Source of the DNA: Polyangia bacterium
GTDB taxonomy: Bacteria; Myxococcota_A; Polyangia; Palsa-1104; SHYY01
Length of the DNA: 64,000 nt
NCBI GenBank assembly: GCA_036263495.1
Contig: DATAGU010000224.1
Coordinates: 55,408 to 119,407 of the forward strand
Direction of reading: 5' to 3'
Made by a program: the position numbers and the translations under genes. Shown here one piece after another: positions 1-63,750 of this stretch; the stretch's first letter is position 1, and each line of letters begins with the position of its first letter. Below the pieces are notes generated by a model, which was not told the origin of the DNA, did no database searches, and saw nothing but the letters and a program-made list of their open reading frames with translations.

Positions 1-929
1 TCATCCTCATCTCCGACGGTCTCAACGAGCGCATGGATCGCCAGACCTTCATCAAGCTCGGCGAGGACGCGGCGCGCCTGCGCATCCCCATCCACACCAT
101 CGCCTTCTCGCCCATCGACTCCCGCGGCCCCCTCCTCAACCTCGGCGACCTGTCCAAGCGTTCGGGCGGGACCTTCCGCTGGGCCGAGAACCTGGCCGAC
201 ATCAAGCACGAGTTCGGCACCCTCGCCGACGAGGTGCGGCGCCAGTATGTGCTCACCTTCAAGACCGACATCGACGCGCCGTCCCTCGAAAAATTCCACT
301 TCGCCCTGCAGTGCGGCGAGCTGCGCTCGAACGTCCTGACCGGCACGGGCGTCCGCGTCCTGCACGGGCCCGAGGGCGGCGGGCTCCGCTGGTACTGGTG
401 GGTCCTCATCGGCGTGGGCGGCGGCCTCGTCACGCTCTACCTCGTGGGTCTCCTCCTCATGCGTCGCGGGCGCGTGGCGCAACCCGGCGCGATGCCGGTG
501 ACCGCGGCGGCCGGCGGCCAGAGCGTGCCCGTCGGGCGCGCAGCGGCGGCCGCGCGCCCCTCGGCCCCCTTGGCCGCCGCCGTCTCGCAGAGGGCCCCCG
601 CCGCGGCACCAGCGGCGCATGCCCCGGGCGCGGCGAGCGGCGTCCTCGTCGCCGTCACCGGCCCGCTGGCGGGGCGGCGCTACCCCGCGCTCGAGCGGCT
701 CACCATCGGCCGAGGTGCCCAGAACACCATCGACACCGGCGAGGATCCCTCGGTCTCGCGCCAGCACTGCGAGGTGCGCCGCGAGGGCGGCGTCCTCGTG
801 GTCCAGGACCTCGGTTCGAGCGCGGGCACCTGGGTCAACGGTCGGCGCCTCGCCGCGCCGCACCGCCTCGCCGACAACGACCTCGTGCGCGTCGGCGAGA
901 ACACGCAGTTCAAGTTCCGGGTCGAGTAG
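1..929 (+). CDS. VWA domain - single TM - FHA domain protein (3' part; N-terminus lies upstream of window)
   Basis: Frame runs in from position 1 (IILISDGLNE is a VWA-type MIDAS-region motif); hydrophobic TM segment WYWWVLIGVGGGLVTLYLVGLLL followed by basic MRRGR; Ala/Pro-rich linker; C-terminal FHA-like block (RLTIGRG..N.I.....VSRQHCEV....GGVLVVQDLGSSAGTWVNGRRL....L...DLVRVG); stop TAG 927-929. Confidence 0.75.
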   Translation, partial: ILISDGLNERMDRQTFIKLGEDAARLRIPIHTIAFSPIDSRGPLLNLGDLSKRSGGTFRWAENLADIKHEFGTLADEVRRQYVLTFKTDIDAPSLEKFHFALQCGELRSNVLTGTGVRVLHGPEGGGLRWYWWVLIGVGGGLVTLYLVGLLLMRRGRVAQPGAMPVTAAAGGQSVPVGRAAAAARPSAPLAAAVSQRAPAAAPAAHAPGAASGVLVAVTGPLAGRRYPALERLTIGRGAQNTIDTGEDPSVSRQHCEVRREGGVLVVQDLGSSAGTWVNGRRLAAPHRLADNDLVRVGENTQFKFRVE

Positions 930-937
930 GCGGAGCC

Positions 938-2887
938 ATGAGCGAGAACTCCAGCATCATCATCTGCGACCAGCGCTTCGACGTCGGGCAGCGGGTCATC
1001 ACCTGGCAAGAAGACCCCATGTACAGCGCCTACACGCCGCACTGCGTGTTCAATCCCAATCAGGTGGGACCCGACAACCCGGCCATCCCCGGCGGCAACA
1101 CCCTGCGCTACCGCGAGCGCCGCCTGCTCGGCGCCGACCGCTCCCTCGGCCGCCTGCAGCAGATCTTGAAGCAGTTCGTCCTCCATCTCGACGGCCTCAC
1201 CAACTCGCGCGACACCTTCAAGGTCCTGCACGACGAGCGCGGCCTGTCGGTGCACTTCCTCATCGACAACAACGGCGACATCTACCAGACGCTCGACCTG
1301 CGCGACTGCGGCTTTCACGCCTCGGGCGTCAACGAGATCTCGATCGGCGTCGAGATCTGCAACCGCGGCGACGCGAAAAAGGACACGCGGGACGTCTATC
1401 ACGGCAAACGCGACAAGGTGAACTGCGTCATCAACGGCTACCAGTACCTGTCCTACGCGTTCACCGAGGCGCAGATGCAGGCCATGGTGAACCTCGGCCG
1501 CTGCCTGGCGCGCGTCCTGCCCGGCCTGCCCCAGGAGTATCCGCGCGACCCCGGGGGCGGGCAGCTCTGGGACACCATCAACGGCGACCCGCGCGACTTC
1601 GCCGGCTACCTCGGCCACTACCACACCACCGCGCGCAAGTGGGATCCGGGCCCCTTCGACTTCCAGAAGTTCGTCTCCCAGATCCGCGGCCGGCTGTACT
1701 TCCCCCTCGTCCCCGGCCAGGACCAGGCCGAGGTGCCCGACGACAAGGCCGCGGCCGAGAGCGAGGCCCAGGCGCTCTACGACAACAACGAGAAGGGGGG
1801 CGACGGCGGCTACTACCCCGTCGGCCCGCTCGGCGCGAGCAAGCTTTGGCACGGCGGCGTCCACCTGCGCGCCGATCGCGGGCGGTCCGTGGTGGCGCCC
1901 CTCGGCGGTCGGATCGTGGCCGCGCGCATGAAGGCCGAGGACGACTGGCCGGCCATCGGCTCGAACAACATGGTGCTCCTGCGCCACGACGTCGCCGTGG
2001 GCGCCGCGCAGATCCGGTTCTGGACCCTGCTCCACCACCTCGACGCCGAGAGCGAGGACAACGCCGAGGCCCCCGGGTGGCTGCGCAACGGCCGCGGCCG
2101 GCCCTGGTGGAACGCGCTCAAGGGCGGCGAGGTGGCGCTCCTCGACGAGCCGGTGAACGCCGGCGAGGTCGTCGGACACTTCGGCGAGGCCGGCCCGCGC
2201 TCGGCGCGCACCGGGCAGATCCACTTCGCCATCTTCGCCGCCGACGAGATCCACGCCCAGGTGGACCCGAGCTTCTGGGCGCGGGTCGACGGCGTGCGCG
2301 GCGGGCGCTTCTGTGCCGAAGAGAGCATCACCGCGTACATGGACTTCAACCGCAACGGGATCCTCCAGCCCAGGGAACTGGTGGGGTTCTTCCGCGATCC
2401 CTCGCCGCAGTCGAAGAAGGCGCGTGAGACCTTCCGTCGCCTGGCGGTGCGGCACCTGTCGGAGTGGGCGGACAACGGGGGCGACTTCCTCCGCGAGCTC
2501 ACCCGCTCGCGTGAGATCCGCGCCCTCATCCCCGGCTCCCCCTCCCGCATCCGCCAGGTCTACGCCGACCAGATCGAGTCCATGTTCTGGTGGACGGACG
2601 AGGTCGGGCAGCACGCCGGGCTGCCGCCCGACAAGCTCGTCTGGAGCTACCACCCGATCACCTTCATGCTGTGGCTGCACGACAAGCTCAAGGGCGAGCC
2701 CGTCGTCGCCAAGGCGCCGCCCAAGCAAGGCAAGGCGCCGCCGCCCGACATCCAGGGCGGCGACTTCGCCGAAGGCGAGAGCGACTCGGCCGGCGGCTTC
2801 TTCTTCGACGACGAAGACGCCCTCTTCGGCGAGGCCGCCAAGAACCTCACGCTGGAGCAGCTGGCCGGCGGCTACCCCGACAAGTAA
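938..2887 (+). CDS. cytoplasmic Amidase_2 (AmpD/PGRP-type N-acetylmuramoyl-L-alanine amidase) domain fused to degenerate LytM/M23-like domain, 649 aa
   Basis: ATG 8 nt after upstream stop with GGAG just before; motifs SVHFLIDNNGDIYQ, NEISIGVEI and GHYHTTARKWDPGPFDF match Amidase_2 zinc/active-site blocks; central segment WHGGVHL..LLHHL..GQIHFAIF resembles M23 but HxxxD and HxH positions are substituted; no signal peptide; C-terminal ~200 aa unassigned. Confidence 0.7.
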   Translation: MSENSSIIICDQRFDVGQRVITWQEDPMYSAYTPHCVFNPNQVGPDNPAIPGGNTLRYRERRLLGADRSLGRLQQILKQFVLHLDGLTNSRDTFKVLHDERGLSVHFLIDNNGDIYQTLDLRDCGFHASGVNEISIGVEICNRGDAKKDTRDVYHGKRDKVNCVINGYQYLSYAFTEAQMQAMVNLGRCLARVLPGLPQEYPRDPGGGQLWDTINGDPRDFAGYLGHYHTTARKWDPGPFDFQKFVSQIRGRLYFPLVPGQDQAEVPDDKAAAESEAQALYDNNEKGGDGGYYPVGPLGASKLWHGGVHLRADRGRSVVAPLGGRIVAARMKAEDDWPAIGSNNMVLLRHDVAVGAAQIRFWTLLHHLDAESEDNAEAPGWLRNGRGRPWWNALKGGEVALLDEPVNAGEVVGHFGEAGPRSARTGQIHFAIFAADEIHAQVDPSFWARVDGVRGGRFCAEESITAYMDFNRNGILQPRELVGFFRDPSPQSKKARETFRRLAVRHLSEWADNGGDFLRELTRSREIRALIPGSPSRIRQVYADQIESMFWWTDEVGQHAGLPPDKLVWSYHPITFMLWLHDKLKGEPVVAKAPPKQGKAPPPDIQGGDFAEGESDSAGGFFFDDEDALFGEAAKNLTLEQLAGGYPDK

Positions 2888-2919
2888 TCTGCTTCGCGGG
2901 AGGGGCGTGAGTGCGGGCG

Positions 2920-3504
2920 TTACTCGCCGACCGGTTTGAAGTAGGCGCCGATCAGGCCGGTTTTTTCGACCAGAGCCTTGAACTCGGCGGAGACGAGGTC
3001 ATGGAGCAGGCACTGCTTGCACTTGAAGAGATGGTGGCCGTCGGTGCTGCCGGGTTTGAAGACGTACTTCTTCACGCTCGAGATCTGCCCATCTGAGTAT
3101 CGATCAGTGATTGAGCGCTCTTCATCGAGGCAATCGACGATGTCGAGTATGTTCACAACCTGGAATCGCCCAGGCCCATCGTAGGTGAGCGGTAAGAGTT
3201 CGATCGCGTTTCCGAGCAGGGGCGCCAACACCTCCGCCGCACGATCCGAAAAAGCCAAGCCGAGGCCCATGAGGCCGATGAAATCGACCGGTTTGCCGCG
3301 ATTCTTCCGCACCCTGGCGGGCTTCCATTCCATGGGCACCGGCTGCCACCAGTCTGCACAACGCACGCCCTTACCCGACAGCTTATTGAAGACTTTGTAC
3401 CAGGAGACGCCCGGTCGCGAGATGGATGCCAGCAGATCGTCATGCTCGTCTGGATCCGGGTCCAGGAGAAAGATTTTCGATGATGGAGCGGTGTCTTTCG
3501 TCAT
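2920..3504 (-). CDS. putative immunity protein of toxin cassette (194 aa, no family recognised)
   Basis: ATG at 3504-3502 overlaps the TGA of the upstream toxin-like ORF (ATGA); markedly lower GC than flanks (about 50% in 3061-3120); genetic position typical of immunity gene; no family recognised by eye. Confidence 0.5.
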   Translation of the reverse strand: MTKDTAPSSKIFLLDPDPDEHDDLLASISRPGVSWYKVFNKLSGKGVRCADWWQPVPMEWKPARVRKNRGKPVDFIGLMGLGLAFSDRAAEVLAPLLGNAIELLPLTYDGPGRFQVVNILDIVDCLDEERSITDRYSDGQISSVKKYVFKPGSTDGHHLFKCKQCLLHDLVSAEFKALVEKTGLIGAYFKPVGE

Positions 3505-4343
3505 GGGGGGAAGGCCCCGTTCTGTATCTCTCGCGCTAGCTTCTGCAGTTCCTCGAGGATCTTCATGCGCCCGCCGCTTTCCTCGGCCCGCCGGAGGCGA
3601 AAAATGACTGTACGAATCGCCTTGTCCGTATGGAGCCCGTGCCCCACATGCTGGCTCGGCGTGAGCACGACGCCATTGTCTATGCTGTTGATGTCGATGC
3701 CATAGTCGTCGAAGAGCACGCGGCCTTGCTCCGCCTCGCGGTGCGTGCTTGGCACGATATGGTGCACCTCCTCGCTGGAGGTCAACTGCCTGCCGAGTTT
3801 CTTCTCCAGCGCAGCGCGTAGCCGGGTGGCGTTGCCAGTCGTATTCCACTGCTGCGTCGACACGAAGCCAGGCGGCCGACCACTACCGCCACTGACCGAG
3901 TTGGTGCCGCGCAATCCCTGAGCCCGTGCCGTCTGCGCTGGCGTGAGTTCGCGCAGCGCGACGTGAAGCATCGCCGTCGCCTGTCCGAGCCGGCGAGCCT
4001 CCACGAGCGCCCAGATCTCGACTTCACTGAGCGCCAGGGTCTTGGCTGCCGCTCCGGTGCCGACCACGAGCGCCAGAGGACCGCCACCTGTGCCGGTGGT
4101 GGTCAGCGCCCAATATGCCTCCCCCGCACCCGGCCCTCGAGAGGCGCCATCCCGCAAGAACCCCACCAACCGACCGAGTCCCGACAGCTTGCCGACTTCC
4201 TTGAGGAGCTCCGGGCCATGACCCACCAGCCGGGCGGCCGTCCACGTGGTACTGACCAGCACCGCGGCCTGGATACCGGCGTTGCCGGTCGCGATGCCCT
4301 TGATCGTGTTGACGAGGCTCGCCAGGCCATGCTTCACCTCCAT
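3501..4343 (-). CDS. polymorphic-toxin C-terminal module, HNH/EndoVII-fold nuclease of AHH-like type (281 aa from first ATG)
   Basis: C-terminal block EEVHHIVPSTH...NGVVLTPSQHVGHGLH resembles the AHH family signature ([AG]HHIvP plus downstream His residues); N-terminal ~180 aa Gly/Ala/Thr-rich with no housekeeping similarity; stop overlaps downstream gene start; the longer 3501..4478 ORF prefix is Arg-rich read-through and probably not coding. Confidence 0.5.
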   Translation of the reverse strand: MEVKHGLASLVNTIKGIATGNAGIQAAVLVSTTWTAARLVGHGPELLKEVGKLSGLGRLVGFLRDGASRGPGAGEAYWALTTTGTGGGPLALVVGTGAAAKTLALSEVEIWALVEARRLGQATAMLHVALRELTPAQTARAQGLRGTNSVSGGSGRPPGFVSTQQWNTTGNATRLRAALEKKLGRQLTSSEEVHHIVPSTHREAEQGRVLFDDYGIDINSIDNGVVLTPSQHVGHGLHTDKAIRTVIFRLRRAEESGGRMKILEELQKLAREIQNGAFPP

Positions 4344-4420
4344 GCGGTGGTCAAGAGGGACCGCTCTTCGTCGAGGCAATCGACGATATCGAGCATGTTG
4401 ACGGCCTGAAAGTGCCCAGG
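4334..4420 (-). pseudogene. remnant of a second immunity-gene copy (fragment only)
   Basis: 4361-4420 aligns to 3115-3174 of the intact immunity gene at about 50 of 60 identical nt (hand alignment); in that frame it encodes FQAVNMLDIVDCLDEERS versus GRFQVVNILDIVDCLDEERS in the intact gene; frame ends at TGA 4336-4334 overlapping the toxin ATG. Confidence 0.45.
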
Positions 4421-4514
4421 ATGCCAAGCATCGCGGTCGCGCTTCTCGATCGCAGGCCGTTGCGCTCGGCACATACAAGGCACATGAAACTAAGGAGGCC
4501 GCGGCAGCCTAGCT

Positions 4515-4537
4515 AAGTCCCTGCGGCGCAGGGACTT
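4515..4537 (-). terminator. perfect 10-bp stem hairpin (aagtccctgc-ggc-gcagggactt), possible terminator of the upstream minus-strand oxidase genes
   Basis: Inverted repeat seen directly; located about 135 nt downstream of the small ORF stop on minus strand; no U-tract. Confidence 0.3.
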
Positions 4538-4671
4538 CATGAAATACCACCCAGGGAGGCAGCCCCGCTCCCCAGGAAAGCCACCGCTCTCCCGGGGGCT
4601 CACACTACCCCTAACGAGGATCTAGAACGTGACCCAGGAGAACCCAGGCAAGGCTTTTCGACTGAAGGTGT

Positions 4672-4827
4672 TCAGGTCTCGTGGGGCTGGGCGACCTGGC
4701 GGATGACCAGGTAGATGATGCCGACGATGAGGAAGGGCACGAGCAGGAAGGCGCTCACGAGCTTCAAGATGGACGAGAACTTGTCGGCGGCGGGCTGGCA
4801 GGCGCAGGCGAGGATGAGGTCGTACAT
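4672..4827 (-). CDS. small hydrophobic protein (51 aa) downstream of oxidase subunits
   Basis: Hand-translated MYDLILACACQPAADKFSSILKLVSAFLLVPFLIVGIIYLVIRQVAQPHET; one predicted TM; below ORF-track length cutoff; 22 nt after coxIV-like stop; no clear SD. Confidence 0.3.
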   Translation of the reverse strand: MYDLILACACQPAADKFSSILKLVSAFLLVPFLIVGIIYLVIRQVAQPHET

Positions 4828-4849
4828 GGCGTGACTCTACTGGGCTCGA

Positions 4850-5158
4850 TCAGTGACCCGGGAAGCGGGCGATGGCCTCGATGATGAGGACGACCGCATA
4901 GATCGGCGGAAACAGCATCGGGATCCCCACCGTCAGCTTGAGTCCGCGACGCTCGTCGGCCAGGTGCATGTAGTAGAGCGCGACGCAGCCGGCCTTGACC
5001 AGGGCCAGCGAGATGAGGAGCGCGATCATCGTGGCGCGCTGCTCCTTGAGCACCTGGGCCACGGCCACTTCGAGGGCCGTGAGGGCCGTGAGCGCCACGA
5101 AGACGATGAGGTACTTCTTCTTGTGGGAGTGCTGACCGCTTGCAGTGTGTTCCGACAT
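4850..5158 (-). CDS. cytochrome c oxidase subunit IV (prokaryotic COX4_pro family), 102 aa
   Basis: MSEHTASGQHSHKKKYLIVFVALTALTALEVAVAQ....KAGCVALYYMHL matches the bacterial subunit IV pattern; immediately downstream of subunit III. Confidence 0.65.
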   Translation of the reverse strand: MSEHTASGQHSHKKKYLIVFVALTALTALEVAVAQVLKEQRATMIALLISLALVKAGCVALYYMHLADERRGLKLTVGIPMLFPPIYAVVLIIEAIARFPGH

Positions 5159-5180: not shown

Positions 5181-5816
5181 TCAGATGAGATAGATGAAGG
5201 TGAACACCAGGATCCACACCAGATCGACGAAGTGCCAGAACAGGCCGGCGACCTCGACGTGGCTGGCGGGCGGATGCGGGCCATCGGTGTACTTGCCGCG
5301 GAGCGCAAAGAGGAGGACCACGCTCAGATAGATGACACCCGTCAGCACGTGGAGACCGTGGAACCCGGTCACCGTGAAGAACGTCCCCGGGAAGCGGATG
5401 TCGCCTCCTTGGAAGATGGAGCCGGAGAGCGTCATGTGCTGCTCATGGATGAGGTGCGTGTACTCGAAGACCTGGCCGCAGAGGAAGAACAGGCCGCCCA
5501 GGACCGTGAGGCCGAGGTAGGTGCACAGCGCCTTCTTGTTCCGCTCCTGCGCCCCGGCCAGCGCCATGACCATCGTCACGCTGGAACAGATGAGCACGAA
5601 GGTCATGAGGGCCGTGAAGTTGATCCCGAGGTGCCGCGTGGGGTCGGGCCAGGAGTGCGAACCAGAGCGCTGAATGCCGTAGTTGAGCAGCAAGCCGGCG
5701 AAGGACATTCCGTCCGTCAGGAGGAAGATCCACATCCCGACCTTGCCGTGGGTCGCTCCTTCGAAGCTGAAGCCCTCCTCGCGGTGCATCGAGGGCGCGG
5801 CGGCGGATTGGCTCAT
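5181..5816 (-). CDS. ctaE: cytochrome c oxidase subunit III
   Basis: Seven-TM protein ending LFWHFVDLVWILVFTFIYLI (classic Cox3 C-terminal motif), GMWIFLLTD near N-terminus; ATG at 5816 preceded by GGAGG; ORF-track start 5825 is TTG. Confidence 0.85.
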   Translation of the reverse strand: MSQSAAAPSMHREEGFSFEGATHGKVGMWIFLLTDGMSFAGLLLNYGIQRSGSHSWPDPTRHLGINFTALMTFVLICSSVTMVMALAGAQERNKKALCTYLGLTVLGGLFFLCGQVFEYTHLIHEQHMTLSGSIFQGGDIRFPGTFFTVTGFHGLHVLTGVIYLSVVLLFALRGKYTDGPHPPASHVEVAGLFWHFVDLVWILVFTFIYLI

Positions 5817-34606: not shown

Positions 34607-34793
34607 GCGGATTCCTCCCCACCATAACCCGTCCTGAAGACTTCGCCGAAACACCGCGGTCATCATTTTCCTACCGCGGCGCCGCCAGCGACGGCGAGGA
34701 CAATGTGGGGTACAGCCGCTCGCTCGAATTCCTCGCTCGTCGCGCCGGAGCCTGCGCCAACTTCTCTTTCTTTAATAATGACTCGTGTTGGGC

Positions 34794-34891
34794 TCGTTCA
34801 CCCACGAAGATATTTTCGCAGTGATCTCGTTCACCCAAGAAGATATACTCACGGTGATTTCGTTCACCCGTGAAGATGACCCCTTTGCCCA
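34794..34891. repeat. three tandem 33-bp direct repeats (TCGTTCACCCANGAAGATA-core), third copy overlapping the P450 5' end
   Basis: Seen directly: ctcgttcacccacgaagatattttcgcagtgat / ctcgttcacccaagaagatatactcacggtgat / ttcgttcacccgtgaagatgacccc...; junctions create GTGAT-N5-TTCAC half-palindromes. Confidence 0.6.
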
Positions 34892-63289: not shown

Positions 63290-63750
63290 CTATGCGCATT
63301 GAAAGGGCCGCTATGCGCACTGAAAGTGCCACTGCGCGCACTGAAAGTGCCACTGCGCGCACTGAAAGCGCCGCTGCGCGCACTGAAAGCGCCACTACGC
63401 GCACTAGAAGCGCCACTACGCGCACTGAAAGGGCCACTGCGCGCACTGAAAGCGCCGCTATGCGCACCGAAAGCGGCACTACGCGCACTGAAAGCGCCAC
63501 TGCGCGCACCGAAAACGCCCCTGTGCACACCGAAAGCGCCTCCGCCGCGCGCTCAGGCGCCTCCGCCGCGCGCTCAGGCGCCCCCACCGCGCGCTCAGGC
63601 GCCTCCGCCGCACGCTCAGGTGCCGTCACCGCGTGCGCAGGCGCCTCCGCCGCATGGCCAGGCGCCTCCGCCACACGGCCAGGCGCCTCCGCCGCACGGC
63701 CAAGCGCCTCCCCACCAACAGGAAGCGCCTCCGTGCGCGGCTCAGTTGGC
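63290..63750. repeat. two adjacent 21-bp tandem repeat arrays (about 12 x gcgcactgaaagcgccactgc, then about 10 x tccgccgcgcgctcaggcgcc with drift)
   Basis: Seen directly; period 21 keeps all three forward and three reverse frames open, generating heptad-repeat ORFs on both strands (e.g. 63278..63961 +, 63129..63794 -); coding status unresolved. Confidence 0.7.

Follow-up and report, generated by a model that had tools for sequence, protein, structure and literature searches.

The closest described relatives of the locus reported here are the AHH-Imm11 toxin-immunity pairs of Myxococcus xanthus (MXAN_0050/MXAN_0049 and paralogs), which belong to the same phylum and combine the same two Pfam families, PF14412 and PF07791. 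They include pairs delivered by a type VI secretion system (T6SS) and the SitA5/SitI5 family of outer membrane exchange. Their toxin-immunity function, cross-immunity and multiplicity are established in M. xanthus (PMC12077181; PMC12077131), where strain DK1622 has 14 ahh and 20 imm11 genes, the latter in surplus (PMC12077181). Binding and neutralization of the cognate nuclease by Imm11 have been shown for Myxococcus homologs (PMC12077181, PMC12077131), and cross-protection is reported between Imm11 proteins that are only 46% identical (PMC12077181). The Tox-AHH/Imm11 pairing has also been catalogued, together with homogeneous Imm11 polyimmunity loci and the conserved Tox-AHH motif residues [AG]HH, N, H, H (Y) (Zhang et al. 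2012, PMC3482391). Here we describe a cassette of about 1.5 kb from a 64,000-nucleotide (nt) stretch of a Polyangia bacterium contig, DATAGU010000224.1; this whole stretch is called the window, and all positions refer to it. We propose that the cassette is probably the relic of a tandem toxin-immunity array, in which the toxin gene is a recently inactivated pseudogene whose product cannot be exported and the Imm11 gene has been retained as protection. It is a degraded member of the established AHH-Imm11 kind and no new kind of system.

The cassette spans roughly 2888-4420 on the minus strand and is wedged between a cox operon and an amidase gene. A preliminary description of the window had placed two convergent minus-strand open reading frames (ORFs) between oxidase and amidase genes. 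Both ORFs and their position stand, but the word convergent was loose: both run in the direction of the cox genes, and only the pair as a unit converges on the amidase gene. The toxin-like ORF (3501-4343, minus) encodes 280 amino acids (aa) from an ATG at 4343, within an open frame that reaches TTG 4478. Its score for the Pfam AHH family (PF14412) is 40.2 bits (cut-off 22.3; E 3.7e-10), and the match covers residues 234-318 when the frame is read over 325 aa. The match places an AHH (HNH/EndoVII-fold) nuclease domain at 3525-3779, minus, with its VHH...N...H..H motifs intact in the sequence EEVHHIVPSTH...DNGVVL...QHVGHGLH. The HH, N, H and H positions of the catalogued motif can all be mapped, and V238, H239, H240, N268, H277 and H283 are invariant across the family alignment. 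The first motif position is Val (V238), not Ala or Gly, in the whole Polyangia clade, which distinguishes it from the M. xanthus toxins.

The immunity gene follows in tandem (2920-3504, minus; 194 aa) and is intact, with 100 to 69% identity to relatives of 192-195 aa. Its product matches Imm11 (PF07791, DUF1629) with 36.9 bits against a cut-off of 22.1 (E 3e-9) over the C-terminal half only, residues 113-193, and all 40 of 40 Imm11 relatives carry a precomputed PF07791 assignment. The plus strand reads TCAT at 3501-3504, that is, ATGA on the minus strand, and the TGA of the toxin ORF overlaps the ATG of Imm11. The AHH-like toxin, the immunity-like partner and their ATGA overlap, all proposed in the preliminary description, were thus recovered. 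In an NCBIfam search neither protein was matched, no sequence relatives were found in PDB, and an AlphaFold2 model of the full-length relative P0008, built from 11 sequences, reached a mean pLDDT of 53, too poor for fold comparison. These sequence data support a putative AHH-type HNH/EndoVII nuclease with an ATGA-coupled Imm11 immunity gene; nuclease activity and its neutralization by Imm11 are what we infer by analogy with the characterized Myxococcus pairs.

The cassette is also compositionally foreign, a view supported by several measures. The lowest-GC 600-nt stretch of the 64-kb window is the Imm11 gene (GC 0.578 for the gene and 0.587-0.592 for the stretch, against a mean of 0.705 and an sd of 0.038), with 51.7% GC at 3061-3120, in line with the low GC reported for this gene. 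Third-position GC (GC3) is 0.74-0.78 in the cassette genes and 0.89-0.98 in the flanking genes. Searching the window by tblastn with full-length toxin and Imm11 queries gave no further copies of either outside 2920-4420.

The toxin gene is broken by a single internal deletion. With the full-length relatives P0002 and P0008 as tblastn queries, only residues 192-463 align, at 4319 to 3504; the retained 3' two-thirds of the gene (codons 192-463 plus stop; 3501-4319, minus) holds half of a helical pre-toxin region followed by the AHH domain. Directly upstream lie the native toxin ATG (4330-4328) and the first codons, MAWR (4320-4330, minus), whose leader-plus-start sequence matches the family loci. 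They are preceded by the proximal 27 nt of the family's conserved leader (4331-4357, minus), with a Shine-Dalgarno sequence, GGAGG, at 4341-4337. From 4357 to 4320 the minus strand reads CTCTTGACCACCGC ATGGAGGTGAAGC ATGGCCTGGCGA; across 28-38 nt it shares 89-96% identity with the leader, Shine-Dalgarno sequence and first codons in loci L002, L003, L004, L006, L090 and L091. Since L002, L090 and L091 have about 135 nt of conserved upstream sequence in common, of which the window keeps only the proximal 27 nt, a further ~110 nt are gone.

At the junction (4319/4320, minus), nt 12 of the toxin coding sequence (CDS) is joined straight to nt 575 of the reference, as judged by exact comparison with the closest intact gene, in L090, and with those in L002, L092 and L004. 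CDS nt 13-574 are missing (562 nt, encoding the signal peptide and N-terminal region), with GA microhomology at the breakpoint and a frame shift of +1. Because 562 = 3x187+1, the native start now reads a 75-aa out-of-frame ORF (MAWRASSTRS...; 4103-4330, minus), the product expected if the native Shine-Dalgarno sequence and ATG are used. The window copy therefore aligns as an internally deleted gene, not as a 5'-truncated orphan. The preliminary view of a decayed module is borne out by this deletion; its alternative of a displaced module is contradicted by the retained 27-nt leader, Shine-Dalgarno sequence, native ATG and 12 nt of CDS.

The 280-aa ORF exists only because ATG 4343 happens to share its frame with the retained part of the toxin. 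This ATG lies within the conserved ATGGAGG that contains the Shine-Dalgarno sequence, 13 nt upstream of the native ATG; it has no Shine-Dalgarno sequence of its own, and intact paralogs carry the equivalent ATG out of frame. NCBI entry HEX2572006.1 annotates 3501-4343 as a 280-aa 'AHH domain-containing protein'. As its start codon falls inside the Shine-Dalgarno region of the native start, the entry is most likely a mis-annotated pseudogene product.

Upstream of the leader, and joined directly to it with no spacer, lie 62 nt from a second Imm11 gene (codons ~111-132; 4359-4420, minus), a fragment sharply bounded on both sides. The similarity of about 60 nt that had been aligned by hand holds under proper alignment, with 50/60 identical and gapless positions between 4361-4420 and 3115-3174. 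By blastn, the fragment matches the adjacent Imm11 gene at 52/62 positions (83.9%, E 7e-16); by tblastn, it corresponds to Imm11 residues 111-132 (82%, E 5e-8), reading GHFQAVNMLDIVDCLDEERS in frame against GRFQVVNILDIVDCLDEERS in the adjacent gene. Its best match is the L006 Imm11 gene (90%, 56/62), ahead of its neighbor (84%); other family copies match at 81-84% over 62-69 nt and L088 at 82% over 45 nt. The fragment is therefore a genuine remnant of another Imm11 gene, as its earlier interpretation as the remnant of a previous cassette implied, but not a copy of the adjacent one. When 4421-4560 was aligned locally with permissive settings to seven Imm11 genes, only noise resulted, which indicates that the fragment ends sharply at 4420.

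What the window copy has lost is evident from its relatives. Relatives of the toxin in the databases share 69-85% identity with it, most of them having 463 aa. The full-length proteins have a basic start, MAWRRWRT..., and continue with a hydrophobic stretch ending A-x-A ahead of EPPP, an N-terminus that, judged by eye, is predicted to be a cleavable Sec signal peptide. They match the AHH profile with 36.8-51.6 bits, and a Pfam search of the 463-aa proteins found AHH only, with no domain in the N-terminal 370 residues. Loci L002, L004/L005, L088, L090 and L092 hold intact toxin-Imm11 pairs joined by the ATGA overlap; the overlap is also present in the window, L091 and L006, and Imm11 is adjacent to the toxin in L003, L004 and L007. 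The loci of P0006 and P0009 were reached via their neighboring Imm11 proteins.

In an exhaustive HMMER search, a helical region at about residues 57-330 of the 463-aa toxin recurred in P0123, P0160 and P0182 behind eCIS_core (PF13699). The C-termini that follow it are DUF2380/PF09533 in P0160, unassigned in P0123 and P0182, and AHH in the 463-aa family. By its distribution, this region looks like an unnamed shared pre-toxin module. Because it recurs with different leaders and C-termini, the family is a genuine modular polymorphic toxin, small and stand-alone. Like polymorphic toxins in general, it combines a shared N-terminal or trafficking part with alternative C-terminal toxins; the window copy is without the trafficking part. 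The likeness to the eCIS_core-led toxins (DUF4157, PF13699) thus lies in the helical region, found in P0123 and P0160 and retained in its distal half in the window, whereas in the window family a signal peptide takes the place of eCIS_core and AHH is the toxin. No contractile injection system genes turned up next to the cassette, although no search aimed at them was made.

Set against the M. xanthus pairs, the Polyangia family is alike in having the immunity gene right after the toxin gene and, very probably, many paralogous loci per genome; M. xanthus loci also include extra imm11 genes and support kin discrimination with cross-immunity between paralogs (PMC12077181, PMC12077131). The two differ in apparent delivery. 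T6SS effectors have no signal peptide, whereas the full-length Polyangia relatives carry a signal-peptide-like N-terminus, and no T6SS genes flank the L002, L092 or window cassettes. SitA lipoproteins have a lipobox with an invariant Cys; by eye, the signal region of the Polyangia relatives has no conserved Cys, the corresponding position being C, F, L or Y depending on the member. The window copy differs further in being internally deleted. An AHH-Imm11 pairing on a large carrier is found in another phylum: in L007 (Anaerolineales metagenome-assembled genome (MAG) JALUDX010000130.1), a 1035-aa protein at 776-4502 has a signal-peptide-like N-terminus, long Arg/Trp-rich repeats and a terminal AHH domain (WHVHHIVPSTH), and is followed by a 221-aa Imm11-like ORF.

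Three intact cassettes have a divergent gene pair upstream (L002 8856-9814; L092 3479-4503; L090 2-501). The pair encodes a Cys-rich protein of ~95 aa and a coiled-coil protein of ~220 aa, both with signal-peptide-like N-termini, 64-82% identical between loci and with no Pfam match on record. It appears to be duplicated along with the toxin-Imm11 pair, and its products may be accessory factors.

Toxin decay with retention of Imm11 is recurrent in this family. Among the ten distinct family loci examined, the toxin is deleted or fragmented in four and Imm11 is full length in all ten. In the window, codons 5-191 are deleted with a frameshift; in L006, residues 144-299 are deleted and the two remaining pieces lie in different frames; in L091, residues 158-227 are deleted in frame; and in L089 only three short pieces remain (residues 43-154, 276-304 and 434-463), followed by an intact Imm11 gene. 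The decayed copy of L089 (284-765) and the intact 463-aa toxin of L092 (4613-6004) both adjoin a DUF1287 gene, and this shared neighbor marks them as the same locus in two states. Stubs comprising the leader and the first ~25-30 nt of toxin CDS follow directly on the Imm11 stop in L003 (1453-1490) and L091 (3130-3162), and an AHH fragment follows Imm11 in L006. These pieces are read as leftovers of tandem toxin-immunity arrays after deletions.

Several of these loci probably belong to one organism. Six cassette loci have NCBI accessions in the range HEX2570192-HEX2573750, all labelled 'MAG TPA: Polyangia bacterium', and all six also occur in JGI sample 3300037473; L091 comes from a different sample, 3300073104. 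The simplest reading of the accession numbering is that one MAG holds at least six paralogous cassettes, some with full-length toxins annotated at 428-430 aa. The preliminary suggestion that the window module pairs with a distant toxin is correct in part: paralogous toxins of full length do exist, very probably within this MAG, but they have immunity genes of their own.

We next consider selection on the two genes, using pairwise ratios of nonsynonymous to synonymous divergence (dN/dS, NG86). For Imm11, comparison of the window copy with its paralogs gives dN/dS of 0.10-0.24, which indicates purifying selection, and the window copy has no private substitutions at 52 family-invariant columns. 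By these measures the window Imm11 looks fully functional. The retained part of the toxin gives 0.22-0.28 against the paralogs, and intact paralogs give 0.16-0.25 against each other. The toxin remainder carries two private substitutions at otherwise invariant columns; intact members carry 0-9. The absence of detectable decay in the remainder implies either that the deletion happened late compared with the divergence of the paralogs (dS 0.4-0.7) or that the remainder is still used. This choice is the main uncertainty of our analysis, and it sustains the possible alternative of a short cytoplasmic toxin.

We propose the following course of events. In the intact unit, the 463-aa toxin would consist of a Sec signal peptide, an N-terminal region, the helical pre-toxin region and a C-terminal AHH DNase. 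It would be exported, and its AHH domain would degrade DNA in recipients without matching immunity, while cytoplasmic Imm11 would bind and block the nuclease in the producer and its kin. The ancestor of the window locus would have carried an immunity gene A in tandem with a leader, toxin B and immunity gene B. Gene A would then have been reduced to the 62-nt piece, the cassette's upstream region beyond -27 lost, and nt 13-574 of toxin B removed by an illegitimate, frameshifting deletion, leaving immunity gene B fully intact. The native ribosome-binding site and ATG of toxin B would now yield a 75-aa nonsense peptide. Export of the window toxin is impossible because it has no signal peptide, and its nuclease is unlikely to be translated, having been shifted out of frame with the native start. 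Imm11 would most plausibly have been kept against related AHH toxins from neighbors or paralogous loci, as orphan or cross-immunity; the Imm11 paralogs of the window family are 68-85% identical. It could be expressed by read-through from the cox operon, by residual coupling or by initiation of its own.

A number of observations weigh against this proposal. The retained toxin shows no sign of relaxed constraint, all its catalytic residues are present and its 272 codons are open; an in-frame ATG exists at 4343, and NCBI and JGI both annotate the 280-aa protein. Imm11 has no obvious Shine-Dalgarno sequence of its own; family members apparently rely on translational coupling, and the frameshift would disrupt it. 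The native promoter region is gone at the window locus, so that expression of Imm11 there is only presumed. Neither a toxin-alignment scan of genome contigs nor an amidase scan of metagenomes yielded an empty site or an intact ortholog of the cox-amidase locus: the former found only the distant Anaerolineales AHH-Imm11 locus, and the amidase relatives in the latter are at most 59% identical (52% full-length), with none having cox genes, toxin or Imm11 nearby. Lastly, a single sample yielded both assemblies of the window locus (the window contig and JGI contig L001), so that they are not independent.

Part of this evidence could be accommodated if the 280-aa ORF were functional, starting at ATG 4343 and producing a cytoplasmic, signal-less AHH nuclease held in check by the coupled Imm11, as a toxin-antitoxin or addiction module or as a recombination reservoir. 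The frame from 4343 is open and matches codons 192-463, the ATGA coupling to Imm11 is kept, the catalytic motifs are intact, and the dN/dS of the remainder is indistinguishable from that of intact paralogs. Moreover, N-terminally truncated Myxococcus AHH toxins are still active DNases in vitro (PMC12077131). We nonetheless consider this unlikely. ATG 4343 sits in the Shine-Dalgarno region that serves the native ATG and has none of its own; full-length paralogs have the same ATG out of frame, so that it is no new adaptation; half of the pre-toxin region is kept without an evident role; and three other copies carry different, unrelated toxin deletions, which speaks for decay rather than design. 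A toxin that is a recent pseudogene thus remains the reading we prefer, and it in turn presupposes that the junctions are real. They could be assembly artefacts, pieces of 75-90% identical paralogs joined at a locus that is in truth an intact cassette or a full array. The same metagenome or MAG contains no fewer than six related cassettes, the agreement of the two same-sample contigs is not independent, and nothing in the family is more conserved than the short blocks around the junctions, namely the leader and the Imm11 62-mer. Still, the join of GAGCGGTCC to CTCTTGACC connects Imm11 codon 132 to leader position -27, outside any sequence common to the joined parts, and the junction GGCGA/GCCTC has only 2 nt in common, whereas assembly errors of the de Bruijn or overlap type depend on a shared k-mer. 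The Imm11 fragment is identical to no recovered paralog (best 90%), and comparable deletions and stubs occur in other samples, as in L091 from 3300073104. We regard an artefact as very improbable.

Equally improbable is the model favored in the preliminary description, a C-terminal tip displaced with its immunity gene as in rhs/CDI/MafB orphan arrays and kept for recombination into a large delivery protein elsewhere. The outward resemblance is considerable: a toxin module without a trafficking domain, an immunity gene kept after it, an immunity fragment before it, atypical composition and, in relatives, toxin stubs after immunity genes. AHH does end large polymorphic toxins, such as the 1035-aa Anaerolineales protein. 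Rhs/CDI/MafB orphans, however, are tips displaced from very large delivery proteins; they share a recombination-competent segment with the main gene and lack a start of their own. The parent of the window copy is a stand-alone gene for a 463-aa protein that carries a predicted signal peptide itself, the full-length relatives are of this size with no large delivery protein, and the retained region occurs in no large delivery protein. The window copy keeps its own leader and start codon, so that the loss is internal, a frameshifting deletion that spared the start, and not a 5' displacement. The toxin's N-terminal parts matched no Rhs, CdiA, PAAR or VgrG sequence in the window, which holds no large homolog. 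Another parallel to the proposed relic is offered by the polyimmunity loci (PMC3482391), in which immunity genes likewise persist without a functional cognate toxin; unlike them, the window has one intact Imm11 gene and a 62-nt fragment, and the remnant of the cognate toxin is still attached.

The surroundings of the cassette are as follows. On the cox side lie COX3 (5181-5816, minus), COX4 (4850-5158, minus) and a 51-aa ORF beside them (4672-4827, minus). Between these and the Imm11 fragment, a hairpin-rich spacer (4421-4671, minus; e.g. AAGTCCCTGCGCCGCAGGGACTT) is unique to the window, matching none of the family loci; it is not cassette-derived and probably represents the cox 3' untranslated region and terminators. 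Scans of 2700-5000 for RNAs, promoters and terminators gave no Rfam match above threshold and no sigma-70-like promoter; the hairpins of the spacer gave only weak terminator-like sites, with a fold z-score of -1.4. On the other side, the amidase gene (938-2887, plus; 649 aa, precomputed Pfam Amidase_2 match) ends ~32 nt from the Imm11 stop. The cassette's short 3' flank (CGCCCGCACTCACGCCCCTCCCGCGAA...; 2888-2919, minus), common to L003 and L089 in direct comparison after the Imm11 stop, fills this interval, ends at the amidase stop codon and thus directly abuts the amidase gene. Far from the cassette, the window has a 33-nt tandem repeat at 34793-34877 (2.6 copies, consensus CTCGTTCACCCAAGAAGATATACTCACAGTGAT) in an unusually AT-rich patch of this 70% GC sequence, which could be a regulatory or binding-site array. 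At 63294-63733, two adjoining 21-nt repeat arrays (11.8 and 8.4 copies, 85% matches) coincide in part with long ORFs of both strands and probably encode a 7-residue repeat protein.

What is modestly new here belongs to the family rather than to the window: a leader of apparent Sec type, a pre-toxin region also present in eCIS_core-led toxins and the divergent small secreted pair. More speculatively, the Polyangia family could form a third, Sec-dependent delivery class of myxobacterial AHH-Imm11 toxins, with a ~50-nt leader-plus-start block acting as the recombination site at which cassettes are stacked and pruned, an idea that we hold only tentatively and judge doubtful. Such a class may be defined by the pre-toxin module in common with the eCIS_core-led toxins and by the secreted pair in L002, L090 and L092. 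The block itself is found as the stub after Imm11 in L003 and L091 and abuts the Imm11 fragment in the window. Were recombination to occur there, a genome would shed toxins while accumulating immunities.

The window locus provides a base-resolved case of cassette decay, in which one frameshifting deletion disables an exported weapon while purifying selection persists on its immunity gene. An annotation problem comes to light as well, as the deposited 280-aa protein starts at an ATG inside a ribosome-binding site. Loss of the toxin with retention of Imm11 was reached independently in at least four family copies. Collectively, this supports the idea that in social bacteria immunity genes outlast the toxins they belong to, shielding their carriers against neighbors.

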